A stretch of DNA of 64,000 bases from Desulfurivibrionaceae bacterium (GCA_030145275.1 JAQYVV010000006.1:8000-71999), one strand, 5' to 3'. Positions 3,394-24,479 are shown, counted from the stretch's first letter. Numbers and translations: made by a program. Notes: generated by a model from the sequence alone, not told the origin.

Positions 3394-4980
3394 CTAAGGA
3401 ACATACTCGTCGGCACCCATGTCGTAATCGTCAACGTCATCACCTAATCCACCCACATCATAAGGACGTGCATCTCCTTCTATATCGTCAGCCGGAGCAG
3501 AGGTGGCAGAGGCGCTATCGATACAGGGTGAAACGTTGGTGCAACCAGCTGGATTATCGGCCCCGTTACAGATCCGAAAATCCCCTGCAGTGGTGGGGCT
3601 GCCAGACCCAGCCTGCTGAAAATCAACAAACTCAGGGTTGGCGTCAATGTTGCCGGTGCCTGCATAACCACCTTCCACATCGGAATAGGTAACTGTCGGA
3701 GTACCACTAATATTCGGGCCGGTACCACCAGCAGTATTCCCCCAGATAACACTGTTGATAATGGTGCCAATACCATACAGGCCACCACCCCTATTCGCGG
3801 AATAATTGCCGCTGATGGTAGTGTTGTAAACGTTCAGCGTTCCAGCGCCGCAATATATACCACCGCCGTCATTAGCTTCGATAATATTACCGCTGACAAT
3901 ACAGTTGGTCAGGGTAACAGTACCTCCCAAATTCCTGATAGCGCCGCCATATGCCCCCGCCTTGTTTCCTTGGATTAAGCTACTGTTTACTTCGGCGCTT
4001 CCATTCTGGATGTATAAGGCGCCGCCATTCTTAACAGTAGCAGCTATATTGTCGTTGATGGTACTATTAGTAATAACCAAGGACGTGCCAGCATCAGCAC
4101 TGTAGACAGCGCCACCGTGCTGAGTTGAAGTGTTGCTGCTTACACTAACATTCGTCAACGCTGCCACAACCGTGCCTCTCAATCTGATAGCTCCACCATA
4201 AGTCCCACCATTGGAGTCAATGCTTGTGTCACTGATAGTTAACGTAGAGCCAGCATCTGCGTACACGGCACCACCGCTACCGGCAGTGTTACCGTTGATG
4301 CTGCTACCACCGCTAATAGTGGCGGCGGTGTTGTCGTCAAGGAAGATACCGCCGCCACTGTAAGCGGTGTTGCTTACAGTGTTGTTGTCGATGTTACTGT
4401 CGGTAATGGTAACAGTGCTCGAGGCACCGCTCAAATAGATGCCACCGCCATCTCTGGTTGTAGTGTTGCTGCTTACGCTGCTACTGGTAATGGCCAGTTT
4501 TGAGTTGTCGCAACGAATACCAGCACCATATTGCGCAGTATTGCCTATTACGTTTATATTAAGCAAGGTGGTGGCAGTAGTGGTCGACGCATTTAACAGG
4601 TAAATGCCACCACCAGATCCAGTGGGCTGGTTGCCCTGGATGATACAGTTCTTGATAAGTGGTGCAGAGAGGCTGTCAACCAAGATACCACGGGTGTTAC
4701 TGTTAGTGATGACAGACCCCTGATTATCAATAGTGAATCCATCCAGTACTGCACTATGTGCACCACTGCTGATATCAACCACCTGGCCATTAGTTCCGTC
4801 GCCTTGAATGGTTGTGGTTGCAGCACCATAGACTGACTGAACGGTGACACTTTTAGTCGTTGGGAAAACTATCCTTTCACTATAAGTGCCGTTGCTGACC
4901 AAGACACATTGACCATCGGCGGCTGCGTTGATACCGGCCTGAATGGTGGCTGCCTCACTGGGCACCTCGACGGCGTCAAC
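3394..4980 (-). other. Parallel beta-helix region 2 of the giant protein
   Basis: The same GGG(I/A)Y / GGA(V/I)Y periodicity as region 1. The C-terminus is DIEGDARPYDVGGLGDDVDDYDMGADEYVP. Coordinates are approximate. Confidence 0.7.
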
Positions 4981-7900
4981 CACGGTTAAGGTTTGCTCTA
5001 CAATGGCATTTCCGTTAGCATCAGCAGTACCGTCATTGGCGTAGAACAGGTATGCAACACCACCATCGGCCACATAAGGAACAAGGGTAGAAATAGTGTA
5101 GAGTTTGCCATCGGTGTAGTCACTATCACCACCATCCACAACGGTCAGGTCTATCTTTTCACCGCCGTCAAGGTAATCGCCGTCATCATTTTTGTCCACC
5201 CACAGCTGAATAGTCACAGGAGCAGTATTGAGTAATTGGGTATACTGGACCCGGAAAGTGTAAAGCCCGCCACAGGGCCCAGATTCTTCTTCAACACCAT
5301 CGATGGTATAACCGCTCTCTCCGGTCCAATCCAGATCTGGCGGAGGACTGGCTGCAAAAATTCCTACGGTGGAGTCAGAGGTTGGGTCACCGGTGGCCGC
5401 ATCTGTACCATCTCCAGCCCTAAAGCTGTAGTTAAGATTGTTGTCACCCGCAGAGTTAAGATTGATGGCAACCTTATAGAGTTTGCCGTCAGTGTAGTCG
5501 CTGTCGCCACCATCCACTGCGCTTAGGTCTACCTTTTCACCGACGTCAAGGTAGTCGCTGTCATCATTTTTATCCAGCCAGAGCTGGATGGAAGCAGGTG
5601 CCTCATTGTCTGCGTCGGTATACTTGATGCGGAAGTCAAAGAGGCTGCCATCCTCGTCATTATTAGGATCAACACCGTCTGAGACATAATTCAGCAATCC
5701 AGTCCAATCCAAGGTCGGAACATGGTTGGCAATGGTCACACTACTGGTTGTGGTTGTTACCGGATCACCGATGGCCGCGACGCCGTTGGCGGCGTAGAAG
5801 CGGTAGTTAAGGGTATTGTCTCCTGCCTTGAAAAAATTCACAGTCCTGGTGTAGATTTTACCATCAGTACAGTCGGTATCAGCACTACTAATCTCGGTCA
5901 TGGTGAGGGTTTCACCACTATCAAGATAATCACCGTCGTCGTTTCTATCCAGCCACACCTGAATGGAGGTGGGCGGCGTGTTATGGGCATCAGTATAGGA
6001 AACCTGGAAGACGAAATCACTGCTGATAAAGCCACTGTCCGGATGGGCTCCGTCCGTTACATAATCACCACTACCAAGCCATGCCAGTTGCGGCACACTG
6101 CTGAGAACAACGGTGTTGTCGGTAACGGGTTCGCCTGTGGCGAGATCATAAGTGTCGGCAGCATAAAAACGATAGTTGAGCACATCGTCACCAGCGTAAA
6201 CTAGGTTTAAAGACTTGCTGTAGAGTTTACCGTCGGTATAGGTGATGTCCCCGCCATCAACTGCACTCATGGTATACTTTTCACCAGCTTCATAGCTGCC
6301 ATTGTCGTTTTCATCCACCCAGAGCTGGATGGCAACAGGTGCATCGTTATCAGCATCAACGTATGTAGTCCGGAATTCGAAACTGGCTCCACTCACCCCC
6401 TGATCGGGGTCAACGCCATCAGCAGCATAATTTGTCTCGCCAGTCCACTCAAGACTCGGGATATTGTTAAACACAGTCCCGACCTCATAGGCCCCCATGT
6501 CAATACCAGCGCCATTGGGACGGATGTTGTTTTCAATATCCGAGGCAGGTGCACCGGTGGCGGTCCCTGCATCCACGGCTGCCGAGTGATTTGGCAGATG
6601 GTAATCGCCCTCGGAAGTGGGGGCATACGAAAAGTCAAGGGGATCAACAAAATATGGGTCAATATTAATATTATTGTTACCGCTGTAACCGTCCTCACCA
6701 ATGTCGGAATAACTGGCAGTGACAGTACCGTTTATCTGCGAACTGCTACCGTTGCCCCAAATGATGGAGTTTGTTAGCGTTACCGTGGCTGTAGCGTCAA
6801 AGGCGACCTCCACTGCACTGCCAGAGTTGCTAGTGTTACCGCTGATGGTGCAATTCAAAATATCAGCAGCCAGAACAACATCCTCCCCGCTGAAATGAAA
6901 CCCACCACCGTTATAATCTCCCTTGTTGCCGCTTACCACACTGTTAACGAATGATGCAGTTGTGTTGCCGTCAACATAGGCACCGCCGCCATACTGGGAA
7001 CTATTTCCGGTAAAGAAAGATCTCTCAATAGTCGCGGTGCCGCCAGAGAGCAGTAGACCGCCACCTTTGGCAAAAAAAGCGCTAGAATTATCACGAATAG
7101 AGGAATCGATAAGGGTGAAGGTATTACCTGCCCCATTGACAACAGCTACGCCGCCGCCGCCTGTTCTACCATCGTTATCATTGAAGGTGGAACCGCTTAT
7201 GGTCATCGAGTCCAGAGCGACCAAACGTATAGCCCCCCCTGCAGAAGTACTTGAAGTATTACTGCTAAACGTGCTGTCGGAGATGCTGCCGGTAAGAAGA
7301 GTGGCCCCAGCACTTTCTAAATACACGCCGCCGCCATTCTGGGCACTGTTGCCACTGATGGTGCTATCGTCGATACTCACGATTACAGTACCGCCTGTGG
7401 CATTGCAATAGATTCCGCCGCCATAGGCGAAGTTGGTTCCGGAGTTGCCGCTGATGGTAGAACTGGAAACGGCCAGCGATGCATCAGCACTGGTTGCCAT
7501 AAAGATTCCGCCGCCACGATTGCCGCTGTGGTTATTACTGATGGTGGAGCCGGAAATATCCGCCGAACTGCCGCTGTCCAGATAGATGCCGGCACCATGT
7601 GATCCAGCGGTGTTACTGCTGATAGTCGTGGCACTAATAGTCACAGTGGACGAAGCCCCAATGACGTAGATACCACCGCCGCCACTATTGCCGATGTTAT
7701 TAGTTATAATAGAATTGATAATGGCAGGCGAAGAATCACTGATGTAGAGACCGCCCCCTTTGCCAAAATTTATTTGATTGCCGTTCTGCACAGTTACGCC
7801 GTTAAGTACTGTATCAGCGCCATTTTTAATCGTAACCGTTGAACCGGAGGCATTACCATCAATAATGCTGGAAGCAGCGCCGTTTTCAGAGATAATGGTC

Positions 7901-10900
7901 AGGTCCTTGTTGTCAATGGTGATTTTCTCCGTGCAGGTTCCGTCTGCAAGCAGGAGGGTATCACCATTCGCAGCATTGTTGATCGCTGTCTGCAGTGAGG
8001 TGTAGTCATAGTCTCCGGTGCCGTCACAAGACACCTTGATAGTATTAACGAAAAGGGTAACGATGTTGTCATTAGCCGCTATACCGCCGGCATCCACGCT
8101 GCCGTCAGAAGCAAAGAAACGATAGTTGATCACGCCGTCCCCCGCAATAAGCAAGGTTGTTGTCGCAACATACATTTTACCATCAGAGTAATCGGTATCC
8201 GAAGCATCAACGACGGTCAGGTCGATCTTTTCATCGCTGTCGTCGTAATCATCATCATCATTCCTGTCCACCCAAAGCTGTATTGCAGTAGGTGTGGTAT
8301 TGTCGGCGTCACTGTATTGCACCTGGAAGCTGAAACTGCTGTTATCAAGCCCGCTATCCGGATCGACACCGTCGGTGACATAATTGCTTACCCCGGTCCA
8401 GGTTAGTAGCGGCGCTGTGTTGCTGCTAGTCACGTTTACTGATCTGTCAGTGGTGGGCGTGCCTGTGGCTTCAAGCGCATCGCGTAAGGCGTAGAAGCGG
8501 TAGTTAAGCGAACCATCACCCGCATAGGCGAGGGCCAGCGTCTTGGAATATAATTTGCTGTCTGTTAAGGTGGTGTCGCCACTATCAACCTCGGTCATCT
8601 CATACTTTTCACCAGGCTCATAACTGCCGCTGTCATCAACATCCACCCATACCTGAATATTGCTTGGCAAGAGATTGTCGGCATGGCTGTAATCTATCTG
8701 GAAAACAAAAGAAGATCCGGAGGCTCCACTGTTGGGACTGACACCATCGGCGCTGTACCCTGCCTCACCACTCCAAGCCAGAACCGGAACATCCGGGTTC
8801 AGGGTAATCGTGGCGCCAGTAACCGGACTGCCGGTCGCTGTGCCATTTCTGTCCATGGCATGGAAGCGATATGAGAGAGTGCCGTCTCCGACACTGTTGA
8901 GCGCCATGATCCTGGTATACAACTTGCCATCTGATGAGTCGTGATCGCTGTCGTCAACATCAAACATGGTGAATTTTTCGTTCTCTGCATAACTGCCGCT
9001 GTCATCAACATCCACCCATACCTGGATAACAGTGGGGCGGTCACGATTGGCGTCAGTATATTCTACCCGGAAGGCAAAATAATTGCCGGACTGAGCGCTA
9101 TCAGGGCTGACACCATCGGTGGTGTAGCCTGCTTCGCCGGTCCAGGCCAGGGTCGGCGCTTCCTGGGCTATAGGATTGGAGCTTCGGGGATAGATATAGC
9201 CCCCACCAGTCGCATTACCATGGCAGTCTGAACACAGATTATCGGAAGTGTTGGAATCCCAGAATGTGCCGGTGCTGTCTGGCAAGTAAATTGGTTGGCT
9301 GGGCTCGACTACATCCCTGGTAGTTACATAACTGACTGAGGGAGATCCTACTACCATATCGGTGTAGAAAATTTTCATCCCCGGCTCCTTGCCAGTCAGC
9401 TTGCCGTCCCTGATCATGGAGAGTTGAGTTGATCCATGGACGTTGTGGCAGTTGATACAGGTGATAGTATTTTTCCCTGTGGTGCTGCGCCAATCGGATC
9501 TAAACCTGTATTGCATGCCAAGATGGTACTCGTGAGCATTGACAGGAGCAGGGTCAGGGCCTGTTGGATTCCAGTCTAAATCGTCCCGGAAGGTGGTACC
9601 GTATTCCGTAGATTTAGTCAGGTATTTATCCGGCAGATGGCAACCGTTACTGGAAAAACAGAGCCGATGCTCGTCTTGATTGGGCGTAACTCCAGTAAGT
9701 GGTACCACCATGGGATTAAGATCGTCCACCAGATTAAGACGATACCCCAGTCGGTACTCGTCCGAGTCGCAGTCACGATCATTTTGATCAATATCATTAG
9801 CAGGATCAGCATCAGTACAATCAAAGGACCGTGCCACGCCGTCGATATGTGCGGCGGAGTAGTCATGGCAATCATCGCACCCCTTGCCGGCACCCTGGAC
9901 CACGCCTCCGCTGGCGGGATAGGTGTCAGCACTATCCAGACCATGACCGGTCTTGTAATAGCCCCAGCCGGTACCGACGCCGTAGGTATAGTCACCGTCT
10001 TCGTCGCCGATGACATTGGGGGCACTGATAGCGCTGGCTACTGACGGAGCCTCATCATGACAGGTGGCACACCATTTATCTTTACCGGCCTGCAGCGTAA
10101 CACTGTCTGACTCGTAAATAGCGGTGTCCCAGTTATTTTTTGCGCCCACCACAGCGTCACTGACGCCGTCGTATGTACCGCCTTGACTATGGCAGGTATC
10201 GCAGACCGTGGTCAACAGCAGACTGGAAGCCCCATCCGCAAAGTCTGGGAAATTAGCTGTATCATGGCAGGTATCACAACCCACATTGGGGCCTTTTAAG
10301 TCATCACTGTCATTTTCTGTATGGGTTGAATGGCTCCAAAATGAGCCTGCGCCACCAGTGGCACCACCGTAGCCTGGATCATGGCCATGGCAGGGCTCAC
10401 AGCCCGGCCCCTGGGAATCAATACCATGGGCAAAGCCCTGAGTATGGGCATGGCAGCTAATGCAGTCGATGCTGGTCACGGCCCCGGCATTGGTATGATT
10501 CTGGTCCGGACCGCTCCCGTCATTACGAAAATGGTCGGTCATGGTATGGCAAACTTCACAGATGCCGTCGTAGATTGCATCGCCATCAGCAAAAGAATTG
10601 TCCCCCTGCCTGTCGGAGAACTTGACCGTGGCATCATCTGTGCCATCATCCGGCGTGTTATTCCAGTCAACCAATCGCTTGATGTATTGACCGTAGATGA
10701 CACCAAAGTTAGTGGGAGGACTGATATAGGTGTACATAGAGCGAACATCCCCAGCCACGGTCATGGTCGTGGCGTCGATAGCTGTAACCGCAAAGGCGTT
10801 ACCCGTTTTTCTCAGGTTGGGTAAGAGGATGGGCCGCCTGGCCGCTGTAGTCTTTTCGGTTATGGAATCTATGTCCCAGCCACTCTTAAAAGCCCCGCCG

Positions 10901-11331
10901 GAGTACGTCAGCACACTAATATCATTGCCAGACTCATAGGCGTAGGCATCTATCTGCCCAGAGAACAGTATGAGTTCAGCGCCTTCAGTGCGAATCCGGG
11001 CCTTCTGGTATTGATAGTGCGGATCATGGCAGTCTATACACTGCTTGCTCCAAGTGCCATACTTGGCGCTGGTATTCTCGCTGGTGTGACCGAGAACTAT
11101 GGGCGCACTGGTGTTACTATATGGGCTGGTGGCAGCATTGTGACAATTTACCGTGCAGAAGTTATTGATATTACTGCCGGTAAGTAGAGGTGAATCAGCC
11201 AGCGAAGTATCATGACAACTGGAGCAGGAGATATTATGACCTGCGTCATGGGGCGCATCAAGCCCGGCAAAAACCGGGGCCATTAAAAAAAGAGAGACCC
11301 ACGTGAAGCAAATAACTTTTAAGAGAAGCAT
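3394..11331 (-). CDS. Giant secreted multihaem cytochrome c fused to seven Ig-like modules and two parallel beta-helix regions (2645 aa)
   Basis: Signal peptide MLLLKVICFTWVSLFLMAPVFA. The first ~720 aa hold 11 CXXCH motifs plus CTVNCH and CFSSNGCH. There are seven ~120-aa modules. Two Gly/Ser/Thr/Asn-rich regions are full of GGG(I/L/V)Y and GGA(I/V) turns, as in PMP-type right-handed beta-helices. These regions end in IDMGAYE and YDMGADEY. Confidence 0.9.
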   Translation of the reverse strand: MLLLKVICFTWVSLFLMAPVFAGLDAPHDAGHNISCSSCHDTSLADSPLLTGSNINNFCTVNCHNAATSPYSNTSAPIVLGHTSENTSAKYGTWSKQCIDCHDPHYQYQKARIRTEGAELILFSGQIDAYAYESGNDISVLTYSGGAFKSGWDIDSITEKTTAARRPILLPNLRKTGNAFAVTAIDATTMTVAGDVRSMYTYISPPTNFGVIYGQYIKRLVDWNNTPDDGTDDATVKFSDRQGDNSFADGDAIYDGICEVCHTMTDHFRNDGSGPDQNHTNAGAVTSIDCISCHAHTQGFAHGIDSQGPGCEPCHGHDPGYGGATGGAGSFWSHSTHTENDSDDLKGPNVGCDTCHDTANFPDFADGASSLLLTTVCDTCHSQGGTYDGVSDAVVGAKNNWDTAIYESDSVTLQAGKDKWCATCHDEAPSVASAISAPNVIGDEDGDYTYGVGTGWGYYKTGHGLDSADTYPASGGVVQGAGKGCDDCHDYSAAHIDGVARSFDCTDADPANDIDQNDRDCDSDEYRLGYRLNLVDDLNPMVVPLTGVTPNQDEHRLCFSSNGCHLPDKYLTKSTEYGTTFRDDLDWNPTGPDPAPVNAHEYHLGMQYRFRSDWRSTTGKNTITCINCHNVHGSTQLSMIRDGKLTGKEPGMKIFYTDMVVGSPSVSYVTTRDVVEPSQPIYLPDSTGTFWDSNTSDNLCSDCHGNATGGGYIYPRSSNPIAQEAPTLAWTGEAGYTTDGVSPDSAQSGNYFAFRVEYTDANRDRPTVIQVWVDVDDSGSYAENEKFTMFDVDDSDHDSSDGKLYTRIMALNSVGDGTLSYRFHAMDRNGTATGSPVTGATITLNPDVPVLAWSGEAGYSADGVSPNSGASGSSFVFQIDYSHADNLLPSNIQVWVDVDDSGSYEPGEKYEMTEVDSGDTTLTDSKLYSKTLALAYAGDGSLNYRFYALRDALEATGTPTTDRSVNVTSSNTAPLLTWTGVSNYVTDGVDPDSGLDNSSFSFQVQYSDADNTTPTAIQLWVDRNDDDDYDDSDEKIDLTVVDASDTDYSDGKMYVATTTLLIAGDGVINYRFFASDGSVDAGGIAANDNIVTLFVNTIKVSCDGTGDYDYTSLQTAINNAANGDTLLLADGTCTEKITIDNKDLTIISENGAASSIIDGNASGSTVTIKNGADTVLNGVTVQNGNQINFGKGGGLYISDSSPAIINSIITNNIGNSGGGGIYVIGASSTVTISATTISSNTAGSHGAGIYLDSGSSADISGSTISNNHSGNRGGGIFMATSADASLAVSSSTISGNSGTNFAYGGGIYCNATGGTVIVSIDDSTISGNSAQNGGGVYLESAGATLLTGSISDSTFSSNTSSTSAGGAIRLVALDSMTISGSTFNDNDGRTGGGGVAVVNGAGNTFTLIDSSIRDNSSAFFAKGGGLLLSGGTATIERSFFTGNSSQYGGGAYVDGNTTASFVNSVVSGNKGDYNGGGFHFSGEDVVLAADILNCTISGNTSNSGSAVEVAFDATATVTLTNSIIWGNGSSSQINGTVTASYSDIGEDGYSGNNNINIDPYFVDPLDFSYAPTSEGDYHLPNHSAAVDAGTATGAPASDIENNIRPNGAGIDMGAYEVGTVFNNIPSLEWTGETNYAADGVDPDQGVSGASFEFRTTYVDADNDAPVAIQLWVDENDNGSYEAGEKYTMSAVDGGDITYTDGKLYSKSLNLVYAGDDVLNYRFYAADTYDLATGEPVTDNTVVLSSVPQLAWLGSGDYVTDGAHPDSGFISSDFVFQVSYTDAHNTPPTSIQVWLDRNDDGDYLDSGETLTMTEISSADTDCTDGKIYTRTVNFFKAGDNTLNYRFYAANGVAAIGDPVTTTTSSVTIANHVPTLDWTGLLNYVSDGVDPNNDEDGSLFDFRIKYTDADNEAPASIQLWLDKNDDSDYLDVGEKVDLSAVDGGDSDYTDGKLYKVAINLNSAGDNNLNYSFRAGDGTDAATGDPTSDSTVGIFAASPPPDLDWTGESGYTIDGVEEESGPCGGLYTFRVQYTQLLNTAPVTIQLWVDKNDDGDYLDGGEKIDLTVVDGGDSDYTDGKLYTISTLVPYVADGGVAYLFYANDGTADANGNAIVEQTLTVVDAVEVPSEAATIQAGINAAADGQCVLVSNGTYSERIVFPTTKSVTVQSVYGAATTTIQGDGTNGQVVDISSGAHSAVLDGFTIDNQGSVITNSNTRGILVDSLSAPLIKNCIIQGNQPTGSGGGIYLLNASTTTATTLLNINVIGNTAQYGAGIRCDNSKLAITSSSVSSNTTTRDGGGIYLSGASSTVTITDSNIDNNTVSNTAYSGGGIFLDDNTAATISGGSSINGNTAGSGGAVYADAGSTLTISDTSIDSNGGTYGGAIRLRGTVVAALTNVSVSSNTSTQHGGAVYSADAGTSLVITNSTINDNIAATVKNGGALYIQNGSAEVNSSLIQGNKAGAYGGAIRNLGGTVTLTNCIVSGNIIEANDGGGIYCGAGTLNVYNTTISGNYSANRGGGLYGIGTIINSVIWGNTAGGTGPNISGTPTVTYSDVEGGYAGTGNIDANPEFVDFQQAGSGSPTTAGDFRICNGADNPAGCTNVSPCIDSASATSAPADDIEGDARPYDVGGLGDDVDDYDMGADEYVP
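4990..6458 (-). repeat. Four tandem ~120-aa modules (in-gene repeat set 2)
   Basis: The modules start LEWTGETNYAADG, LAWLGSGDYVTDG, LDWTGLLNYVSDG and LDWTGESGYTIDG, with the same internal signature as set 1. Coordinates are approximate. Confidence 0.8.
6480..8050 (-). other. Parallel beta-helix region 1 of the giant protein
   Basis: ~20-residue periodic turns of the form ..S.I..N.A...GGGIY.. It ends with the NIRPNGAGIDMGAYEVG motif. Coordinates are approximate. Confidence 0.7.
8060..9153 (-). repeat. Three tandem ~120-aa modules (in-gene repeat set 1)
   Basis: The modules start LAWTGEAGYTTDG, LAWSGEAGYSADG and LTWTGVSNYVTDG. Each contains Y(T/S)DADN..P..IQ(V/L)WVD..D(D/S)G.Y and ends in L.YRF.A. 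Coordinates are approximate. Confidence 0.8.
9154..11331 (-). other. Haem-rich N-terminal region of the giant protein
   Basis: All CXXCH motifs of the protein fall here: CSSCH, CIDCH, CEVCH, CISCH, CEPCH, CDTCH x2, CATCH, CDDCH, CINCH, CSDCH. Confidence 0.85.
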
Positions 11332-11818
11332 ATAACCTATTTCCTGTTCCTTTGAGAAAAACTCATATTATTCCAACCGATTACCAGCAGGTGCAATACG
11401 GTCAAATTTCTAGATGATAACGATGCAACAGCCTTTACGTATGCTCGATGAACTCGCTTGCTTCATTCAGAGAGCCTAATTTCATAAGCGAATCATCGGT
11501 GTGGTGGATAAGACGCATGAGCATAACTACCATCAATAATGACGTAGCGATAGTTGACAGAGGCCAGATCCGTGCTATTTATGGGAGATCTACGGCGCCT
11601 CGGCAAATTATACTGCTGCCTCTGCCCAAGGCCTGCACTCGGCGACCCAGACAATCCATGCGTAGCATGGATAAGCGGGCCGAGCTTATGGCAATCTTAC
11701 ACTAGGGAACTCCAGGAAACACACGGAGCACTCTGAATCAATCATATTGATGATACCACTAAAATTTCGAATTTCTCACAACTTTTTAAGAAAACAACTA
11801 ATAGCTTACATGGTTTTT

Positions 11819-14188
11819 TCATGGAATAGTGACTTTCAGTGTGTAACAGGTATCACAATCATCTTGGTCCGCCCAACTGTCCCAATAAAGCTCGTGAATA
11901 CTGTAATCAGGGGCATATATTTTCAACCAAATCTCATAAGTCCCGGCACTGTAGGTGTGTTGAACTGATCCGGTAGGCGACGTGAACGAGTCTGATCCTG
12001 AGGGCCAATAGACATAAACCTTACCATACGGATCGCCATTGACCGACACCGTGACAGTGCTGCCGCTAATCGATACATCTGGATACCAGGCAGGCGGCGG
12101 TGGTGGTGGCGCACTTGGCGTGAACGAAATCGTAGTCTTTTCGCCGGTCAAACCATTGGCGCCAGTCACACTGACCACGGCCTGATAGGTTCCTGCCGCA
12201 CCGTATTCATAGGATACGGAGGAAGAGGTCCCAAAATCCTGCTCCGTATAGACGACAGAGCCGGAAGCTGCGAGACCATCATAAAATTCCCAGGTATAGG
12301 TGTACGGCGACACACAGGCACTTGCGGGGAAACAGGATGGGGAGCCGGTGATTATGGAAATGCCGTAATCGCCTTGATCTGTTAAGTCATAGCTGAAACC
12401 TGCAGGAGTTAATGAGGCGCCCCCCCAGTTGAAGGATGCGCCAAAACCATATACACCGTGGCAGGAAATATTGGAGCACCTGCCAGCGCCGCCATTGAAG
12501 GTGTAGTCGAGGGTTGAGTCATAGGGTATGCTGTTCTTCAAAAAGGTAGGAGAAGCCACAACATCATACACACCGTTGATGTGTTTGGTCGCATCGGTAA
12601 TAGTAACACCGTCTGTGGTCGTGGCATAATGGCATATCTCACAGTCAAACCCAATGCTCTCATGTCTTTCGTGCGTATTCGATTTGCTGCCGCCAACAAA
12701 ATTACCATATGCCGGCGGGTAGCCATGACAGTTGTTACAGTTGTTCCCATCCCCCTGCGGATCAGGTGAAGAACCGTCCCACTTGGGAGAGGTGTTTATT
12801 CCCACTTCAGGGGAAACAAATCCTGTTGAAATTGAGGTGCCGTCACTGTGACAATAGGTGTTGGCACAGACAATCCCGCCACCTGTAGTAACTGTCGTAT
12901 TGTTGACCCCCTGGTATGTATAACCGTTGGCAAGGGTCTGGCCGTCATAGGATGTATCCGTCCCGTCGCTCATGCCGCTGACCGCTACCCCGGAAAAACC
13001 GATCTGGATAGCAGCATCGCCCTCCTGGTTACTGGCAGTCATGGTGGTTGACATGCCCCCGTAATGACAGATGTGGCAAGGATATCCCATGCCGCTCGGG
13101 GTGGCATGCAAGGTGTGCTGGCCGCTGCTGGCCGAAGCAGTTGCATCCGGGGGAGGATAGCGAGCCTCCTCCGGTACATTGCCTGACCCCACCAGACCAC
13201 TGGGGCCATTAGGGCTATCCTGGCTGGGAGGCAAGCCGTGACAGTCTGTACAACTGGGCCGAAAGCCATCGGCATGATTATGACAGAACAAGCACTGCTC
13301 CTCACTCTCCAGGTTGACGTTAGCCTCGTCAAGCAGGGCAATATTGGCATGGTTTGGGTCTGGAGCGGCTGCGGCGCCGGCATTACGGAAGTGATCGGTT
13401 TGGGTATGACAAATTTCACAGACATTACTGCCGTCCCCGGCGGTAAAGCCATAGGTGCCGTTCTTATCCATGAACTTCAGGGCTTTTTCGTAGCTGCCGT
13501 CGCCATCAGTATCAACGAACTTCCTGATGTACTGACCATAGATGACGCCAAAGTTAGTGGGCGGGCTAATGTAGGTGTACATGGCCCTGACATCGCCGGC
13601 CACGGTCATGGTAGTAGCGTCGATAGCTGTAACTGCAAAGGCGTTGCCAGTTTTCTTCAGATTGGGCAGGAGGATGGGCCGCCTGGCCGCTGTGGTCTTT
13701 TCGGTTATGGAATCTATGTTCCAGCCGCTCTTAAAAGTCCCGCCGGAATACGTCAGCGCACTGGTGTTGTCATCGGCGTCATAAACATAAGCATCAACCT
13801 GACCGCTGAAGAGGAACAGTTCAACACTCTCGGTGCTGGCCCAATATTTCTGATTTTGATAGTGCGGATCATGGCAGTCCAGGCACTGTTTGGTCCAAGG
13901 GCCAAACTGGGTGCTGGTATAGGCGCTAGTATGCCCGAGGACCATGGGAGCACTGGTGTTGCTGTAAGATTCAACATTGGCGGCATTATGACAATTTACC
14001 GTACAGAAATTGTTGATATTGCTGCCGATAAGCAAAGGGGAATCCGACAGCGAAGTATCATGACAACTGGAACAAGAGATTTTATGGCCTGCGTCGTGGG
14101 GCGCATCAAGGCCGGCAAAGACCAGATCCGCAGAGAAAAGAGATACACAGATGACACAAAAAATTTTTAGAAAAAGAGCATAGCCCAT
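11819..14188 (-). CDS. Secreted multihaem cytochrome c with C-terminal PKD/Ig-like domains (789 aa); N-terminal paralogue of the giant protein
   Basis: It has a signal peptide and 8 CXXCH motifs, plus CTVNCH, CANTYCH and CSNISCH. The CX4CH...CXXCH pattern resembles the Geobacter-type domain. The first ~270 aa are ~80% identical to the giant protein. A PKD-like region is present (YTYTWEFYDG...YQAVVSVTGANGLTGEKTTISF). Confidence 0.9.
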   Translation of the reverse strand: MGYALFLKIFCVICVSLFSADLVFAGLDAPHDAGHKISCSSCHDTSLSDSPLLIGSNINNFCTVNCHNAANVESYSNTSAPMVLGHTSAYTSTQFGPWTKQCLDCHDPHYQNQKYWASTESVELFLFSGQVDAYVYDADDNTSALTYSGGTFKSGWNIDSITEKTTAARRPILLPNLKKTGNAFAVTAIDATTMTVAGDVRAMYTYISPPTNFGVIYGQYIRKFVDTDGDGSYEKALKFMDKNGTYGFTAGDGSNVCEICHTQTDHFRNAGAAAAPDPNHANIALLDEANVNLESEEQCLFCHNHADGFRPSCTDCHGLPPSQDSPNGPSGLVGSGNVPEEARYPPPDATASASSGQHTLHATPSGMGYPCHICHYGGMSTTMTASNQEGDAAIQIGFSGVAVSGMSDGTDTSYDGQTLANGYTYQGVNNTTVTTGGGIVCANTYCHSDGTSISTGFVSPEVGINTSPKWDGSSPDPQGDGNNCNNCHGYPPAYGNFVGGSKSNTHERHESIGFDCEICHYATTTDGVTITDATKHINGVYDVVASPTFLKNSIPYDSTLDYTFNGGAGRCSNISCHGVYGFGASFNWGGASLTPAGFSYDLTDQGDYGISIITGSPSCFPASACVSPYTYTWEFYDGLAASGSVVYTEQDFGTSSSVSYEYGAAGTYQAVVSVTGANGLTGEKTTISFTPSAPPPPPPAWYPDVSISGSTVTVSVNGDPYGKVYVYWPSGSDSFTSPTGSVQHTYSAGTYEIWLKIYAPDYSIHELYWDSWADQDDCDTCYTLKVTIP

Positions 14189-14372
14189 ATTCAGTCCCCT
14201 TGATAAAAACTCGCTATCATTATAACCGGATCCCGGCAGGTTAACTCAAATCAACGATCCATATTATCATTGTACAAATGGCCCCACGATACCCAAACAG
14301 AGAAGAAAGAAGCTTCCTTAAGTTTGAGCTTCTAAGAGTTCCCAAATGGGGTACTGCGGGAACTTTACTGGT

Positions 14373-16952
14373 CTACTTAACCTTGCGCAGCTTTGCCGGT
14401 CCAGAAAGATCGACAATTACCCCATTAGCAACCCCATCGGCATCGCCCAAACCACCGTCGGTGAGTTCCAGAACAGCTGACAAGCGATCACGACTGATCT
14501 GAGTCAAACCGCTATAATCAAGCCACCCATTAAACGGATCATAATGGACCCAGCTGCTGCCAGATGGAATAGCCCGCCCCTCCTCGGCAAAATAGAAAGA
14601 CACGGATACGGAGGCGCCAGGAGAAGCAACCTCAATTTTGTTAGCCAGCAAGCCAAGTGAGAACTTAATAGATTTACCAGGGGGCTCCAGTAAATTTTCC
14701 GGGGCAACGGCCTTGACCGCCAGTAAACTTGCCACCTCGGATACCACACTTAAGCAAGCTCTATTCCCCCCTTCTGCCGTATCAACACAGAAGAGTTCAT
14801 CCTGCTCGCGATCGGCAATGCCGTCAGCATTTACATCATCAATGCCCATTTCTCCATCTACCGGCTCCTCAAGCCCCTGGAGACCGGTTTGAAAAGTAAA
14901 GACATCAGACCATTCCGACTGACTACCCAGGGTAGACCAGAACTTTGCCCGCCAGTAGTAGGTGGTTTCAGGGTCAAGAAGTAGTTCCGCTAACGGTAGT
15001 TCGGTCAAATTCTCGCCAGAACCATTCACCGCCAGGAGGAGATGGCTAAATTCAGGATCAGGGCTAACCTGCCAACTCGTGAACCAGTGCTCAGCGCAGC
15101 CTGCCGGATCAACATAGACTCCCGCACTCAACTGTGCTGTTACAGAGATATCCTCGGAATAATTTTCAGGAGAGAGCGGCAGTGGCCAATCCGGCCAAGA
15201 GAGACACTCAAAGCTATCTCCCAGGCCAATGATGGCTGGCATACTCCAGCTACTGATATTTCCGGCCTGATCAATGGAACTTACCCTCCAGTACCAAATA
15301 CCGTCAGCAAACAAATTGCCTAAGTCATACCAGCCGTCGGTGATGATCGTACTCGTCGTAAGGCCATTAAAATCTGGATTATCTGCCACTTCCACCCTAA
15401 AGGCAACGGCGTCCGCCGCTGTCCAACTTATGATGCTTGTACCGGGCAGAAACCCAAAATCGACAACGGGAGTGAGGGGCGGTTTGGTATCGAGAATGAC
15501 CTCGGCTGCGATTTCGATAGTGTTACCACCAGCATCCTGCAAGTTCCCCAGAACCGTCTTCACTCCATCACCAGTAGTAAGCAGCCAGGCCAAATCAGCA
15601 CCAAAAGGCTTCCATTCGCCAAATGGTTCTCCAGCATTGGCAAAACGCATGATCTCGGCTTCAGGAGAGATGATGGAGAGCAGCACATCTGCGCCACTGG
15701 TGTAGGTAGCGCCATTATTAATTTGCAGAGAGCCACTGAGCTGATTCTTCACTGCCACCGTGCAGAAGTCCGGTTCTGATAGCAGCCCCAGGGCATTGGT
15801 TACCGTCAGTTGAAAAACAAGCTCCTCACCAAGAGGCGCCACTTCCGGAGCCTCGAAAATCGGCCTAACAGAATCAGGATCATCCAAATTCACTAATGGG
15901 CCACCCACCTGGGTCCAGGTAAAAGAGAGCAGCTCACCTTCCGGATCACTGGAACTGCTGCCATCCAAGCTTACCATGGCATGCTCGGTAACCAGAAGGT
16001 CCTCGCCGGCATGGGCCTCTGGAGGCTTATTGTCCCAGTTCATCTCCCCGGAAGCATCGGCAAGTCCTAACACCCTCACCCCACGCCAGAAGGGAGAACC
16101 GATCAAAAGCCGCAAATCTGCAGTTACTGCAAGAGCCTGGGCAGGAAGTTCTGCTCCGTTTTCCTCGCGAATCGAGCCAAGATACTCTCCACTGCTGCTA
16201 TAGCAGAACACCCCACCTCGGGCAGGATCACTGATATAGACATTGCCCCCGGGGGCGACGCTGATACCACGAGGCCGGATTAACTGCCCTTCGCCCAGGC
16301 CGTAACTAGCGAAACTCCTAAGAAACACCCCTGAAAGTGTACACACCGAAACTCTCACCCCGTGAATCATACCGCCGTCATTCCCCACAATGGGAGGCTG
16401 TTCAAGGATATAGAGTTCATCACCGGCAATAGCAATGGATTCAGGGAGGTTCGGACTATCATCAATGGTAAAAAGCAGGCTGCCGCCTGGTTCATAAACC
16501 TTTATAGCGTGAGCCAACTGATCAACAACGTAGATATTGCCGCTCTGACTATCAACAGCGAGACTCACCGGACGTTTGAACTCACCGGCTCCGCTGCCTA
16601 AATAACCAAGCTCAACTCCAGACGCAGCATCAATAATAGTTACGGAGAGATCCTTAGCTGAACTGACGAAAAGACGGTCTCTGTCACTGGCAACTGCTAA
16701 AGGAGAGGAGACAGGGAACATATTGCGCAAAACACCCTGCAGAGAGTAGCTCGCCACCAGATCACGGTCCGAGTCAACCGCATAGATCACTCCCCTGGCA
16801 ACGGAGAGGTGTTCAACGGTGGAGAGTTTGGAAGTAATGGAGGGAAGCGGTACATATTCAATGTAGGCCATGGCCATAATGGGAAAAGAAAGTAGAACAA
16901 TAAATAACACAAGCGCTAAATAACCTTTTATTTTGACCATAACCATCCCCAT
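14373..16952 (-). CDS. Secreted NHL-repeat beta-propeller protein with PKD-like and two Fn3/Ig-like modules (859 aa)
   Basis: Signal/TM segment LALVLFIVLLSFPIMAMA. NHL-like blades repeat (...IYVVDQLAHAIKVY, GNVYISDPARGGVFCY). A PKD-like segment reads SLDGSSSSDPEGELLSFTWTQVGGP. Two modules carry the ...YYWR(V/A)...S.WS signature. There is a DDVNADGIAD Ca-loop-like motif and a C-terminal DGGLGDADGVANGVIVDLSGP motif. Confidence 0.85.
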   Translation of the reverse strand: MGMVMVKIKGYLALVLFIVLLSFPIMAMAYIEYVPLPSITSKLSTVEHLSVARGVIYAVDSDRDLVASYSLQGVLRNMFPVSSPLAVASDRDRLFVSSAKDLSVTIIDAASGVELGYLGSGAGEFKRPVSLAVDSQSGNIYVVDQLAHAIKVYEPGGSLLFTIDDSPNLPESIAIAGDELYILEQPPIVGNDGGMIHGVRVSVCTLSGVFLRSFASYGLGEGQLIRPRGISVAPGGNVYISDPARGGVFCYSSSGEYLGSIREENGAELPAQALAVTADLRLLIGSPFWRGVRVLGLADASGEMNWDNKPPEAHAGEDLLVTEHAMVSLDGSSSSDPEGELLSFTWTQVGGPLVNLDDPDSVRPIFEAPEVAPLGEELVFQLTVTNALGLLSEPDFCTVAVKNQLSGSLQINNGATYTSGADVLLSIISPEAEIMRFANAGEPFGEWKPFGADLAWLLTTGDGVKTVLGNLQDAGGNTIEIAAEVILDTKPPLTPVVDFGFLPGTSIISWTAADAVAFRVEVADNPDFNGLTTSTIITDGWYDLGNLFADGIWYWRVSSIDQAGNISSWSMPAIIGLGDSFECLSWPDWPLPLSPENYSEDISVTAQLSAGVYVDPAGCAEHWFTSWQVSPDPEFSHLLLAVNGSGENLTELPLAELLLDPETTYYWRAKFWSTLGSQSEWSDVFTFQTGLQGLEEPVDGEMGIDDVNADGIADREQDELFCVDTAEGGNRACLSVVSEVASLLAVKAVAPENLLEPPGKSIKFSLGLLANKIEVASPGASVSVSFYFAEEGRAIPSGSSWVHYDPFNGWLDYSGLTQISRDRLSAVLELTDGGLGDADGVANGVIVDLSGPAKLRKVK

Positions 16953-16958
16953 CCTCCG

Positions 16959-18110
16959 TTAAACACCATCTTTGTTACTATGACAGACAAAACAGCCGTT
17001 GCCAGCACCAGCCCCTGTGGTCCCAGCTGAAATTAAGGTGTAATCCCAACGCAGCATATCAGAAAAGGGGCTGCCATGGGCTCGATGACAGGAGAGACAG
17101 AGTACCGTATCCGTCCCCGGAGTTACAGTCCCAGAAGCTGTGCTTCCGGTAATGCTCACCCGGCCCACCGGAACATCTAGGTCATAGCTGGTATAGGCGG
17201 CATACTCACCACTGTTGGGTAAGAGAATATCGGTGGGGTGCCTAATCCATGGTGAAGAAGGCCCGCCAATATCAGCACTGGCATGAAAAAGACCGTGACA
17301 TTCAGCACAGAGCTGGCTGATGCTCTCGATATCCGCCCAGTCCTGGGTACTACGATCAGCATAGACTATGCCCTTATACTCGTTATGATCTGTTGGACCG
17401 GTGGTCGCCTGCCAGTCCGCATCCTCAGCCCCATGTACCTTATTGAGAAAACGGTAACTGGTAGCCACCGTGGCCCCCTGAGACGCCTCATCCAATGAAC
17501 CGAACTTCAAAACCGAATCGTCACCGTGATGAGTAGCGTGCATGGCCTGGGTCTGGCTGATCTTCTCCCGATCGCCATGACAACCATTAGTACCGGCGCA
17601 CATAACCTGCGGAGCCGTCCCAGAGTAAGCGGGCTGGTACTTTGCAGTAGAGGGATCATAGTCGGCAACATAGCCTGGCGGTGTGTTCTGCAGGTCACTG
17701 TCCTGAGCGACAATGTCATTACCAAATCCGTGGATATTATGACCGTAGCTATCATCAACAAAAACGTGATGGTAGTTCCCTGCGGCCAAATCCGTGCCAA
17801 CATGGGCAATCTGCGGGGCATCGGCTATAATATTATCACCGCCATCCACGGCCTGCGCATGGCAGCCTAGACAGTCAAGACGCAGCATAGAGGAACGGGC
17901 TGAGCTATGACAATCGTTACACTCAGCGGCCCCAGCAACATTAGGGGTGGAATCAATTTTCATGGAAGCACCGTTCTGGCTGTCATGCATGGTGTGGCAG
18001 CTGGAACACTGGCCACTCTGGATTTTAGTCCATCCAATCGCAGGGAGAAAGAAGGATAAAAAGAGGCAAAGCAAAAGGGTGAAGAGAGGCTGCCAGCAGG
18101 CAAACCGCAT
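16959..18110 (-). CDS. Secreted multihaem cytochrome c (6 CXXCH)
   Basis: Motifs CSSCH, CNDCH, CLGCH, CAECH, CLSCH and CFVCH, plus CAGTNGCH. The start was moved to MRFACWQPLFTLLLCLFLSFFLPAIG so that the protein begins with its signal peptide. The ORF itself is open up to 18284. Confidence 0.85.
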   Translation of the reverse strand: MRFACWQPLFTLLLCLFLSFFLPAIGWTKIQSGQCSSCHTMHDSQNGASMKIDSTPNVAGAAECNDCHSSARSSMLRLDCLGCHAQAVDGGDNIIADAPQIAHVGTDLAAGNYHHVFVDDSYGHNIHGFGNDIVAQDSDLQNTPPGYVADYDPSTAKYQPAYSGTAPQVMCAGTNGCHGDREKISQTQAMHATHHGDDSVLKFGSLDEASQGATVATSYRFLNKVHGAEDADWQATTGPTDHNEYKGIVYADRSTQDWADIESISQLCAECHGLFHASADIGGPSSPWIRHPTDILLPNSGEYAAYTSYDLDVPVGRVSITGSTASGTVTPGTDTVLCLSCHRAHGSPFSDMLRWDYTLISAGTTGAGAGNGCFVCHSNKDGV

Positions 18111-18412
18111 GGTCTGCCGACACGCAGCCTTTTGGGATAAACACTCCACAACTAAACGGTCAGGCCTGCCCATCCAGTTGTGATCTCTCAGGTATAACGG
18201 ATACTCTCCCACAATAAACTCCCCTTGTTTATAAATATATCCCCAAAAAGAGTTTTTCCCTCTTTCAGCAGCCACAAAACACATATCACCTAACCTCGGG
18301 AACTCTGTAACTTTGCACCAAGCAACGACAAACTAAACAATCAGCCCAACAAACATTTCACGCTTTACTTAATAACTGTTTAACTTAATCCTTAAAGACT
18401 ACTACAATGTGA

Positions 18413-18428
18413 TGCATCAATAGTGCCA
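18413..18428 (-). promoter_or_regulatory. Candidate sigma-54 (-24/-12) promoter for the cytochrome gene set
   Basis: The minus strand reads TGGCAC-TATTG-ATGCA, against the consensus TGGCAC-N5-TTGCW. GG and GC have the correct spacing. It lies ~300 nt upstream of the start at 18110. Confidence 0.45.
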
Positions 18429-18984
18429 AGTACAAATAAAATCCTGCACAGCTACGTTGTGATCAGGGGCAAAGTGCCCCAAGAGAACATCAAGACCGGG
18501 GTTCTACCTATAAAAAAACTCCATCTTAATCCCCCCGTGTGTAAGAATTCTGACGGCCCAAAAGGAACCAAGAGACTATTCTATTTACAAAATCGTAACC
18601 GGAAACTCAGCCATGGCTCCAATTATGCGCAGCAGAATGAGAACAGCCCAGATAACACCAAGATACCGCTCGAATTACATAAACGCAACCAAATAGTCCA
18701 TCGGTAATTCCAATTACACCTGGTAGTGGTTTTTTTGACACAAAAGCGAAGAGGGAAGCTGACTCAAAAAGTGGCAGTGAGGGCGTAAGAAAACGAGGAA
18801 AAGGCTTCAGCAATGAGAATCGCAATGCCGATGCCTTCGGGATTGCGGATAATCATCATAGGATTGACGACAAGCACCCAGACGTGTCCATCCAGCAGCG
18901 GGCCGCCGCTATTCCAACGGATTAATGGGGGCAGCGACCTGGATAACAGGTTGACTGTTGGTCAAACGATACCGGGAAATAATG

Positions 18985-19016
18985 CCAGGTTTCAGTCACA
19001 GTAGACTGAAACCTGG
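18985..19016. other. Strong isolated hairpin (13-bp perfect stem)
   Basis: CCAGGTTTCAGTC-acagta-GACTGAAACCTGG, inside a 1.26-kb stretch with no credible ORF and with no U-tract on either side. Confidence 0.5.
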
Positions 19017-19546
19017 CCGGACTCCCGACGATACAACCTTTGCCCCTGGGCGGCAGATTGTATAAATGGAGAATTAAAGGCGTTTAACGACAGCAGGCCA
19101 AGTCAAGCCTATCCCCAGTCATGATGGGCCTGCAACTCCTGATCTTTGGGAGATAAAAAAAGAAACTTGCCCGGCCTATGGTGCAGTAGTGAATGATCTG
19201 CTGACAGCGCAAGGTGCGCGGTAAAAGCACTGAACCGAGGAATGTTGCAATGTTTCTCTCCGGGCATTGCGCAACAGCACCATCAAGCCCCTTGGCATGA
19301 CTGACTATAACCTGTAGGCAATACTGTTGATCGGGCTAAAGAAGAAACTACCAAGGGGACAGGAGACTGCAAAAGCAGCATTTAAGAAAGTTTTGTTTTG
19401 ATTCTTTTTGGCAGCAGTTGACCTTCTTTTTCATGTCTGAGATCCCCCAAATAAGCGATTACTTACCATCATCTCAGATCCAGATTTATTCCTAGAACAA
19501 AAGAGGTCAGTTTTGGAGAAGAAGTGATACACTATAACTTCCTCCG

Positions 19547-23418: not shown

Positions 23419-23440
23419 AACTACCTCCCTTTTCTTTTTA

Positions 23441-23827
23441 TTAATTATACCAACTAAGTACTTTATGAATACCAGCTATAAGCTCTGCTGCTTCTACCGG
23501 TTTACTTATCATCAAAGCACATCTATCACGAAATTCTTGATTTATGATTTCCTCGTCTCCATATCTGACCAAAGCAACAATTGGTATACCCTCCCCTATT
23601 TGTAGTAGTGTTTCTGCCATATTTTCGCAGCAACCATCAGGAGAATTTGTATCTACAAGCAACATGCTGACCGGATTATGATCCTTGGCGGATTCAGATA
23701 TTTTCGCCATGACCAAGGAACAGTCGTCAACTGTACTTATGGAAAAATTTTCGCTTTTCAGGGTCAAAGACAATATTCGCTGCAGTCCTATTTCACGCTC
23801 AGCTACAAGTATATGTTTTCGATTCAT
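23441..23827 (-). CDS. Single-domain response regulator (REC only)
   Basis: ILVAEREIGLQ...SMLLVDTNSPDG...ISKP. The acceptor Asp and the Lys are conserved. Confidence 0.8.
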   Translation of the reverse strand: MNRKHILVAEREIGLQRILSLTLKSENFSISTVDDCSLVMAKISESAKDHNPVSMLLVDTNSPDGCCENMAETLLQIGEGIPIVALVRYGDEEIINQEFRDRCALMISKPVEAAELIAGIHKVLSWYN

Positions 23828-23909
23828 TAATTTAATCGTTCATTAATAATTTCAGATACAGCCTGACAAAAAGTATCCTGATCTTAGACGTTGCCGTACC
23901 CTTGACTAT

Positions 23910-23925
23910 AGCAAACTGCATGCCA
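23910..23925 (-). promoter_or_regulatory. Sigma-54 (-24/-12) promoter for the REC-rhodanese operon
   Basis: The minus strand reads TGGCAT-GCAGT-TTGCT, near-perfect against TGGCAC-N5-TTGCW. The GC of the -12 box is ~85 nt upstream of the ATG at 23827. Confidence 0.6.
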
Positions 23926-24006
23926 AAACCAATAATCAAACACAAGACATTGATATATAAAGGTTTTATCAAGATATCCAAGAAAAATGATTGCTCAGCA
24001 TTAATG

Positions 24007-24018
24007 CAAATTAATTTG
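24007..24018. promoter_or_regulatory. Perfect 12-bp palindrome CAAATTAATTTG (possible enhancer/IHF-type site)
   Basis: It lies ~90 nt upstream of the -24 box; the function is a guess. Confidence 0.2.
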
Positions 24019-24457: not shown

Positions 24458-24479
24458 CACCCGTTGCCCCTCTTAATAT

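Follow-up and report, generated by a model that had tools for sequence, protein, structure and literature searches.

A cluster of four genes for exported proteins, here called g1 to g4, lies on the minus strand of a 64,000-nucleotide (nt) stretch from a Desulfurivibrionaceae bacterium (GCA_030145275.1 JAQYVV010000006.1:8000-71999; the whole of this stretch is the window). We conclude that the cluster probably encodes an extracellular electron-transfer module of the class that joins OmcS-like cytochromes to beta-propeller proteins, in a diderm, uncultured bacterium of the Desulfobulbales. Homology, motif conservation, domain architecture and recurrent synteny all point to a module of this kind; the localisation, haem loading, polymerisation and docking of its proteins, and the direction and substrate of electron flow, are proposed below from sequence features. 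The four genes and the candidate end of their transcription are as follows.

16959..18110, minus strand: g1, putative OmcS-superfamily cytochrome of 383 amino acids (aa), with six CXXCH motifs and an invariant CX5CH
14373..16952, minus strand: g2, predicted secreted NHL beta-propeller protein of 859 aa, with PKD and Ig-like modules and a choice-of-anchor U C-terminus
11819..14188, minus strand: g3, predicted multihaem cytochrome of 789 aa, with 8 CXXCH, 1 CX3CH and 2 CX4CH
3394..11331, minus strand: g4, protein of 2645 aa, with 11 CXXCH and 1 CX3CH, all within the first ~710 residues
3252..3275, minus strand: terminator-like GC hairpin plus T-run ~120 nt past the g4 stop (consensus match only), probably the end of the transcription unit

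A preliminary description of this DNA had placed four consecutive minus-strand genes here, and open reading frames (ORFs) were found at 16959-18110, 14373-16952, 11819-14188 and 3394-11331. Its figure of 25 canonical CXXCH haem-attachment motifs was also confirmed by counting (6, 0, 8 and 11 in g1, g2, g3 and g4, respectively), far above the mean of 0.02-0.035 and the maximum of 1 obtained when the residues of each protein were shuffled (1000 shuffles per protein). Five non-canonical candidate sites (CX5CH in g1, CX3CH and two CX4CH in g3, CX3CH in g4) would bring the possible haem sites of g1-g4 to as many as ~30. The signal peptides that it assigned to all four proteins were judged by eye, by a hydrophobic N-terminus and a plausible cleavage site (marked here by a slash): those of g2 (AMA/Y), g3 (VFA/G) and g4 (VFA/G) were borne out, and that of g1 (about AIG/W) holds only if translation starts at position 18110. 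The stop codon of g1 is 6 nt from the start of g2, and 487 nt separate g3 from g4. The cluster is bracketed by a strong hairpin (19017-18984) ahead of it and the terminator-like hairpin (3275-3252) past its end; together with the short gaps, these would suit one or two transcription units. The G+C content of g1-g4 is 0.51-0.53, and their G+C at third codon positions (GC3) is 0.50-0.56, against 0.41-0.47 in the housekeeping genes of the window and 0.36-0.38 in two further cytochrome genes at 42608-45024; this raised GC3 would fit with the cluster having been acquired horizontally.

The most informative feature of the locus, overlooked in the preliminary description, is the relationship of g1 to OmcS. 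Pfam assigns g1 a Paired_CXXCH_1 domain (E = 6e-11), and a match to Mtrc-MtrF_II-IV scored 22.3 bits, under the Pfam cut-off of 30. As a single sequence, g1 already matched OmcS in the PDB (6EF8; phmmer E = 4.8e-4), with g1 residues 33-374 aligned to OmcS residues 7-363. A family profile built from 40 diverse homologues and searched against PDB sequences recovered 6EF8 at E = 1.3e-12 (50.5 bits), nine orders of magnitude ahead of the other PDB cytochromes; the next ones (NrfB, OmcE and NrfA) followed at 5.6e-4 or worse, OmcE being a weak match at 1e-3. Judged by these profile comparisons, g1 is a distant homologue of OmcS.

The haem sites sharpen this relationship. Six are invariant in the g1 family (C35, C80, C171-x5-C177H, C268, C338 and C373), and these five CXXCH motifs and the CX5CH align with the six haem sites of OmcS in the same order, sites 1-5 by alignment and site 6 by position. 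The first, C35xxCH-TM-H42, is invariant in the family and is the counterpart of CEGCHTMHNS in OmcS; H42 is present in 40 of 40 homologues. C338LSCHRAH is likewise invariant, and CLSCHRAH is identical in OmcS. The histidine two residues past the first CXXCH, H42 in g1, is what we take to be the equivalent of OmcS His16, which ligates haem 5 of the next subunit; as Wang et al. are said to have described in 2019, the CxxCH-TM-H motif of OmcS provides the inter-subunit haem ligand. g1 differs from OmcS in two respects. The CXXCH of OmcS haem 3 is replaced by an invariant C-A-G-x-N-G-C-H-G (CX5CH; g1 residues 171-178, ~17577-17600, minus strand), and there is a seventh site, C64NDCH, which is extra and variable and is missing from part of the family. 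The CX5CH is an unusual spacing for haem attachment.

The g1 family is large, with more than 1584 proteins in a word-index search and more than 516 loci among GTDB species representatives, and it spans Desulfobulbia, Thermodesulfovibrionia/Nitrospirota, Desulfuromonadales, Thermodesulfobacteria and others. Family members were also seen in a Candidatus Methanoperedens metagenome-assembled genome (MAG; locus L013) and in Chloroflexota (L033), Spirochaetota (L064) and Sulfurovum (L086). Such genes in far lineages, an archaeal bin included, reflect either horizontal transfer or binning errors.

Directly downstream of g1, g2 encodes a propeller on what appears to be a stalk. The NHL propeller (about residues 40-300) was recognised by Pfam (2e-7) and by NHL propellers of TRIM71 and TRIM2 in the PDB (down to 4e-16), and the rest of the protein matches a K319L-like PKD (4e-10), Ig_Rha78A_N (2e-9) and, at the C-terminus, choice-of-anchor U (1e-17). 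g2 has neither a haem motif nor a lipobox. An 860-aa propeller protein with exactly this architecture follows a g1-like gene at locus L020 (Desulfobulbaceae).

The remaining two genes encode large cytochromes that begin alike and end differently. g3 consists of an N-terminal head of ~310 aa, a GSu_C4xC__C2xCH region (TIGR01904, 6e-9) and a C-terminal PKD (5e-5)/beta domain. g4 is divided as follows, from its N-terminus to its C-terminus.

10372..11331, minus strand: signal peptide and head module (aa 1-320), delimited by BLASTP of g3 against g4
9187..10371, minus strand: second haem-rich region (aa 321-715), from CXXCH positions and Cytochrome_C7 and Paired_CXXCH matches
8044..9162, minus strand: repeats 1-3 of ~123 aa each, predicted beta-sandwich (repeat alignment, AF2, Foldseek)
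6472..8034, minus strand: predicted right-handed beta-helix 1 with a choice-of-anchor Q cap (Beta_helix 2e-17; NF041518 4e-12)
4981..6468, minus strand: repeats 4-7, the same predicted beta-sandwich module (repeat alignment, AF2, Foldseek)
3397..4980, minus strand: predicted right-handed beta-helix 2 (Beta_helix 2e-15; Chlam_PMP 5e-8)

Over 329 columns, covering the first ~320 residues, g3 and g4 are 64% identical (BLASTP E = 1e-131), and on this alignment they are paralogues. Their 5' DNA is 78% identical over 719 nt, counted from ~50 nt upstream of each start codon. On the minus strand, the 5' parts of g3 (13100-14240) and g4 (10243-11380) form a tandem duplication with unrelated downstream bodies. 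Because the duplication begins ~50 nt before the ATG, the leader and ribosome-binding-site region was copied too.

The shared head bears five to six haem sites, along with a beta-rich insertion of ~130 residues. It starts with a nearly invariant Asp/x-Ala-Pro-His right after the signal peptidase site, which places the Pro-His about six residues from the mature N-terminus. Scanning genomes with the single g3 sequence gave no match and the word index gave 17 homologues; an exhaustive search of 1.84 billion representative proteins returned a head family of 519 clusters, 344 of them at E <= 1e-10, in which the head is almost always N-terminal. The best 148 head proteins range from ~160 to 3900 aa, and their CXXCH motifs number 13 at the median and 88 at most. 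That the head is nearly always N-terminal while the bodies vary suggests a conserved entry module. Searched against the PDB, the head profile found no specific relative, only generic haem-motif matches (MtrA-like 6R2Q at 2e-7, NrfA, and OmcE at 1e-4). With hhalign, the last ~60 residues of the head, bearing three haem sites, aligned to the first three haem sites of the g1 family (87% probability, E = 4e-6), a likeness between profiles that is suggestive but weak. It is a long shot that the heads of g3 and g4 represent a class of modular 'electro-adhesins' which dock onto OmcS-like filaments, serving for instance as adaptors at a tip, a base or a branch; docking could rest on an inter-protein haem ligand that the head donates or accepts. 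The near-invariant Pro-His, the ~500 clusters without a solved relative and the alignment with g1 haem sites are the features that suggest it.

Beyond its second haem-rich region, g4 is built as a scaffold. The ~123-residue repeat occurs in three copies and then in four, and each run is followed by a beta-helix of ~520 residues. AF2 modelled the repeat as a seven-stranded beta-sandwich (pLDDT 71) that is closest to a module of a multi-modular xanthanase, 6FHJ (Foldseek E = 2e-6, TMq 0.65). The overall Beta_helix match of g4 (2e-27) falls in two blocks, with Chlam_PMP repeats, and beta-helix 1 also has weak NosD/Chlam_PMP matches. The C-terminus ends in a beta-helix cap, with no barrel and no recognisable sorting signal. 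The NHL propeller, the PKD/Ig-like modules and the two beta-helices named in the preliminary description were thus recovered by Pfam, NCBIfam and PDB sequence searches, and the choice-of-anchor U/Q, PKD, beta-helix/PMP and beta-sandwich repeats spread over g2-g4 are modules of the surface-protein type. Small NosD/Beta_helix proteins (~306-309 aa) were noticed near head- or g1-type genes elsewhere (L020, 5763-6692; L002, 9464-10384); the one in L020 is lipoprotein-like, and such proteins echo the beta-helices fused into g4.

The gene neighbourhoods of g1 homologues are best read against the osc cluster of Geobacter sulfurreducens, which runs from GSU2504 to GSU2493 (Shen et al. 2025, as relayed by PMC13194489 and bioRxiv 10.1101/2025.11.06.686851). 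By these secondary accounts, the cluster includes channel-like OscEFG, the prolyl isomerase OscH, the cytochromes OscI/J, and OscD and NHL propellers. OmcS-like genes with companion propellers are reported to be widespread. We called ORFs in the 80 best of the more than 516 g1-like loci, plus L001 and L005, and searched these ORFs using the proteins of the window and the accessory genes of two well-populated loci (L030 and L082). A conserved block of osc-type accessory genes, comprising three small or medium-sized exported proteins and a ~550-aa SurA-like protein, was present in 34 of the 80 loci; a 26-haem cytochrome, as a rule alongside a ~16-haem one, in 20; and a propeller gene (300-480 aa) beside the g1-like gene in 27. 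This composition matches that of the Geobacter osc cluster as known by secondary description.

The window belongs to a rarer sub-architecture, in which a g1-like gene is accompanied by an enlarged propeller (668-1252 aa, with an Ig-like stalk) and by head-type or giant cytochromes. A synteny search in related genomes, one of the checks put forward in the preliminary description, found this sub-architecture again in six loci (L001, L005, L009, L010, L011 and L020), among them the following.

L005, Thermodesulfobacteriota: g1-like gene, NHL protein and a 1733-aa cytochrome, then a ~4000-aa surface protein
L009 and L010, Nitrospirota: enlarged propeller with head-type or giant cytochrome
L011, Desulfobulbia: enlarged propeller with head-type or giant cytochrome

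A head-type neighbour was found in five loci, four of which lack E/F/G/H genes within 10 kb; L082 has both. The recurrence of head-type or giant cytochromes beside g1-like genes argues for a functional link and not for chance adjacency. This bears on the idea that g4 is mainly an adhesin or biofilm-matrix protein with an accessory haem domain (for redox sensing or detoxification) and unrelated neighbours. Three quarters of g4 is non-haem scaffold, and the 487-nt gap between g3 and g4 may hold a separate promoter; set against the head module common to g3 and g4 and its recurrence with g1-like genes in independent lineages, these points leave the adhesin idea very improbable.

Relative to osc, the likeness of the window lies in g1, with the same haem order and the CxxCHTMH and CLSCHRAH motifs of OmcS, and in the adjoining propeller gene. 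The differences are these: the window lacks homologues of the peptidyl-prolyl isomerase (PPIase), of the channel-like E/F/G proteins and of the 26-haem cytochrome; g2 has 859 aa with PKD/Ig and choice-of-anchor modules, in comparison with propellers of ~300-480 aa elsewhere; and two giant head-type cytochromes stand where the accessory block would be. Neither a 26-haem nor a ~16-haem OscI/J-like cytochrome adjoins g1-g4. This combination, in which an OmcS-like gene is joined by a stalked propeller and by giant cytochromes of the head type that replace the osc chaperone/channel block, appears to be undescribed in the searchable literature, as does the fusion of one of its giant cytochromes to beta-sandwich repeats and two beta-helices.

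Within the Desulfobulbales a comparable protein, DA_402 of Desulfurivibrio alkaliphilus, was described in Nature in 2025; it is OmcS-like and has seven CX2-5CH motifs, six of them aligning with OmcS. On Fe(III) oxide its induction exceeds 100-fold, and predictions make it extracellular and, by AlphaFold modelling, filament-forming (PMC12545173). Compared by description, g1 comes from the same order and has the same pattern of seven motifs with six aligned; neighbours like g2-g4 are not described in that study. Desulfovibrio ferrophilus IS5 has two clusters (DFE_0448-0451 and DFE_0461-0465) of multihaem cytochromes and NHL propellers without a porin-cytochrome conduit, which were proposed to serve extracellular electron uptake (PMC5815863, PMC9769857). 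Again compared by description, the likeness is in the several multihaem cytochromes, the NHL propeller and the missing porin, and the difference in the beta-helix or Ig-repeat fusion proteins, which are not reported there. OmcE clusters of Desulfuromonadia also combine a filament subunit gene with multihaem cytochromes and beta-propellers (bioRxiv 10.1101/2025.10.22.684050); they differ in that a large outer-membrane beta-barrel is always part of them and the propellers are lipoproteins, whereas g2 has no lipobox and the window no barrel. Uet clusters place multihaem cytochromes beside NHL propellers (PMC10734462). In syntrophic sulfate reducers, OmcS-like genes accompany oetABI (PMC10734462, PMC10553843) and OmcS-like cytochromes are core extracellular components (PMC10553843).

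With MtrCAB, PCC3 and OetABI, and with the surface-layer cytochromes of the ANME archaea, the g1-g4 proteins would share the principle of haem chains held away from the cell on large extracellular proteins; unlike the porin-cytochrome conduits, the window has neither a porin nor a periplasmic decahaem partner. In ANME archaea, large cytochromes are fused to surface-layer domains. Our Pfam scans of the window covered gene-like ORFs of 128 aa or more, and among these no outer-membrane beta-barrel, PPIase, quinol dehydrogenase, type I or type V secretion system (T1SS/T5SS) or sortase was found, nor any TpsB/Omp85, autotransporter barrel or ABC/MFP/TolC adhesin transporter. The preliminary description was therefore right that no porin, quinol dehydrogenase, T1SS/T5SS or sortase partner lies beside the cluster; that the arrangement is not of the MtrABC/Pcc type, given that the scans recovered neither barrel nor periplasmic partner family; and that it is not that of a two-partner adhesin, there being no transporter gene in the window and no barrel at the end of g4. 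Its stronger statement, that the layout matches no known arrangement, is incorrect, because cytochrome and NHL-propeller clusters without a porin had already been published (D. ferrophilus, osc and Uet). Its candidate role in extracellular or cell-surface electron transfer gains from the OmcS homology of g1, the surface-type scaffolds and the lack of a porin-cytochrome partner in the window.

The mechanism that we favour would run as follows. All four proteins would be exported by Sec, haem would be attached in the periplasm, and the outer membrane would be crossed with machinery encoded elsewhere, either a type II secretion system or an osc-type channel. Outside the cell, g1, carrying six or seven haems, would probably self-associate through the histidine of its N-terminal CxxCH-TM-H, as OmcS does. 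The g2 propeller on its Ig/PKD stalk would serve as scaffold or morphology factor without a redox role, in the manner of the propellers of osc and OmcE clusters, a role suggested by analogy with OscD and with the propeller lipoproteins of OmcE clusters. g3 and g4 may plug their common head of ~310 residues into one shared partner, possibly g1 or a membrane conduit, and would make contact with their distal parts (further haems and PKD in g3; further haems, seven beta-sandwich repeats and two beta-helices in g4), reaching and adhering to a mineral, an electrode-like surface or a partner cell. The sequence does not distinguish between reduction of Fe/Mn oxides, electron uptake from minerals and interspecies transfer.

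Several observations weigh against this favoured reading. Structure prediction, another of the checks put forward in the preliminary description, was informative for the g4 repeat and uninformative for g1: an AF2 model of g1, made from the 40-sequence alignment without haems, reached a pLDDT of 48 and gave only noise in Foldseek. Structure prediction commonly fails for haem-packed proteins. The start of g1 is ambiguous, an upstream ATG at 18284 giving a protein of 441 aa with 58 residues ahead of the signal sequence; the public annotation (P0019, 441 aa) uses this ATG, which has a GAGG 9 nt ahead of it. The 58-residue extension is non-conserved, and the homologues and the position of the signal peptide favour the Met at 18110 as the likelier start. 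Several close g1 homologues are also annotated with non-conserved N-terminal extensions. No ORF of the window was homologous to osc E/F/G/H-type proteins at E <= 0.01 (phmmer, L030 and L082 queries), and the osc chaperone and channel genes must therefore lie outside the 64-kb window if they are needed for secretion or assembly. In D. ferrophilus, deletion of the cytochrome clusters left Fe(III) oxide reduction intact (PMC9769857). Finally, among the OmcS paralogues of Geobacter filaments are known for OmcS alone, and homology-based assignment of nanowires has been cautioned against (bioRxiv 10.1101/2025.11.06.686851).

Some of these points would suit a reading in which g1 is extracellular and redox-active yet forms no filament. 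Across more than 40 diverse homologues the CxxCH-TM-H motif does not vary, and its reported role as the inter-subunit haem ligand of OmcS argues against such a reading, which we hold to be rather unlikely. On it, g1 would be monomeric or loosely matrix-bound, as may hold for OmcT, OmcJ and GSU2501, and g1, g3 and g4 would together form a surface or matrix layer of cytochromes for short-range storage or relay of electrons. It draws on the extra, variable haem site C64 in the g1 clade, on the osc-type assembly genes not found in the window and on the polymerisation known for OmcS alone among the Geobacter paralogues (bioRxiv 10.1101/2025.11.06.686851); the AlphaFold filament of the related DA_402 (PMC12545173) is a further point against it.

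It is improbable that the four proteins constitute a periplasmic system, serving as electron stores or wires or as parts of a sulfur or metal redox enzyme, with the beta-helices and the propeller as binding or maturation modules. The choice-of-anchor domains, PMP-type beta-helices, PKD modules and seven beta-sandwich spacers are surface or extracellular hallmarks, a rod-like g4 of 2645 aa is hard to fit into the periplasm, and an extracellular location is known or predicted for OmcS and DA_402. What speaks for the periplasm is that no outer-membrane export partner is encoded nearby, that beta-helix 1 of g4 has weak NosD-type matches, that rhodanese genes lie 4 kb upstream, and that several cytochromes of the D. 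ferrophilus clusters are predicted to be periplasmic (PMC9769857).

The surroundings of the cluster identify the host and offer candidates for regulation. FtsZ of the window is 70-73% identical to the closest Desulfobulbaceae MAG proteins, and the closest g1 homologues are in Desulfobulbia and Desulfobulbaceae MAGs; together these relatives indicate an uncultured bacterium of the Desulfobulbales, and the presence of LolA in the window indicates a diderm. Upstream of g1-g4 lie genes for a CxxCxxCC protein, an SLT_2 transglycosylase, two rhodaneses, a receiver, and a PAS kinase with a sigma-54 activator; farther out are housekeeping genes, lolA, two multihaem cytochromes (42.6-45.0 kb) and the dcw cell-division cluster. 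Downstream of g4 and convergent with it is the NarL-type two-component pair (5-2479) of the preliminary description, in which Pfam indeed found HisKA_3/HATPase and Response_reg/GerE domains. The sites and genes of note are these.

18413..18428, minus strand: sigma-54-type -24/-12 match upstream of g1, TGGCAC-N5-ATGCA, TGGCACTATTGATGCA, with one mismatch
42608-43699 and 43867-45024, plus strand: two predicted multihaem cytochromes with 12 and 16 CXXCH (Pfam; phmmer to 12-haem pairs)

The sigma-54 promoter that had been proposed upstream of g1 does not stand out from background: the window has four one-mismatch matches where 2.9 are expected, and as many were reached in 34 of 100 shuffles, so that by itself the candidate is no more than chance. 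A second one-mismatch site lies at 23910-23925 on the minus strand, upstream of the receiver gene. At 22111-27879, the two rhodaneses and the lone receiver are followed by a divergent pair of PAS histidine kinase and sigma-54 activator, and this activator could regulate nearby sigma-54 promoters. Directly past the activator gene is a 498-aa ORF (27881-29377, plus strand) without a Pfam match. The idea that this ORF encodes a hidden porin or OscF-like protein was rejected, since it lacks both a signal peptide and phmmer similarity and looks cytoplasmic. The 1.1 kb upstream of g1 (18430-19540) has no convincing ORF and contains a hairpin with a 14-bp stem (19017-18984, minus strand); no Rfam family was matched in the window, this region included.

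The two cytochromes at 42608-45024 strongly resemble the 12-haem pairs found directly downstream of g1-like genes in L006, L019, L055 and L071 (phmmer E = 1e-39 to 1e-65), and the OscI/J-like 26- and 16-haem cytochromes weakly (E = 1e-5 to 1e-15). Tentatively, they may be periplasmic partners of the module displaced by 25 kb. For the gene at 42608-43699 (plus strand) an internal Met is the probable start, and its product may carry a signal of the lipoprotein type; a PAS histidine kinase (45162-46853) follows the pair. In L006, the 12-haem pair is followed by maturation genes of the ResB/CcsA type.

Desulfobulbales and their relatives connect the sulfur, iron and carbon cycles in sediments, and their porin-free wiring is only partly understood. 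As it stands, the locus is a well-founded annotation lead and establishes no new principle; it ties a widespread OmcS-like cytochrome to recurrent partners distinct from the Geobacter osc machinery. If these partners interact, they would be candidates for the anchoring, capping or surface targeting of cytochrome filaments, and the head module would provide a sequence signature for finding such systems in metagenomes. Were the improbable docking of heads onto filaments to prove true, the result would be a conductive filament linked to exchangeable distal modules, adhesive or redox in kind, for the binding of minerals or partner cells, which would address what terminates and anchors cytochrome nanowires.

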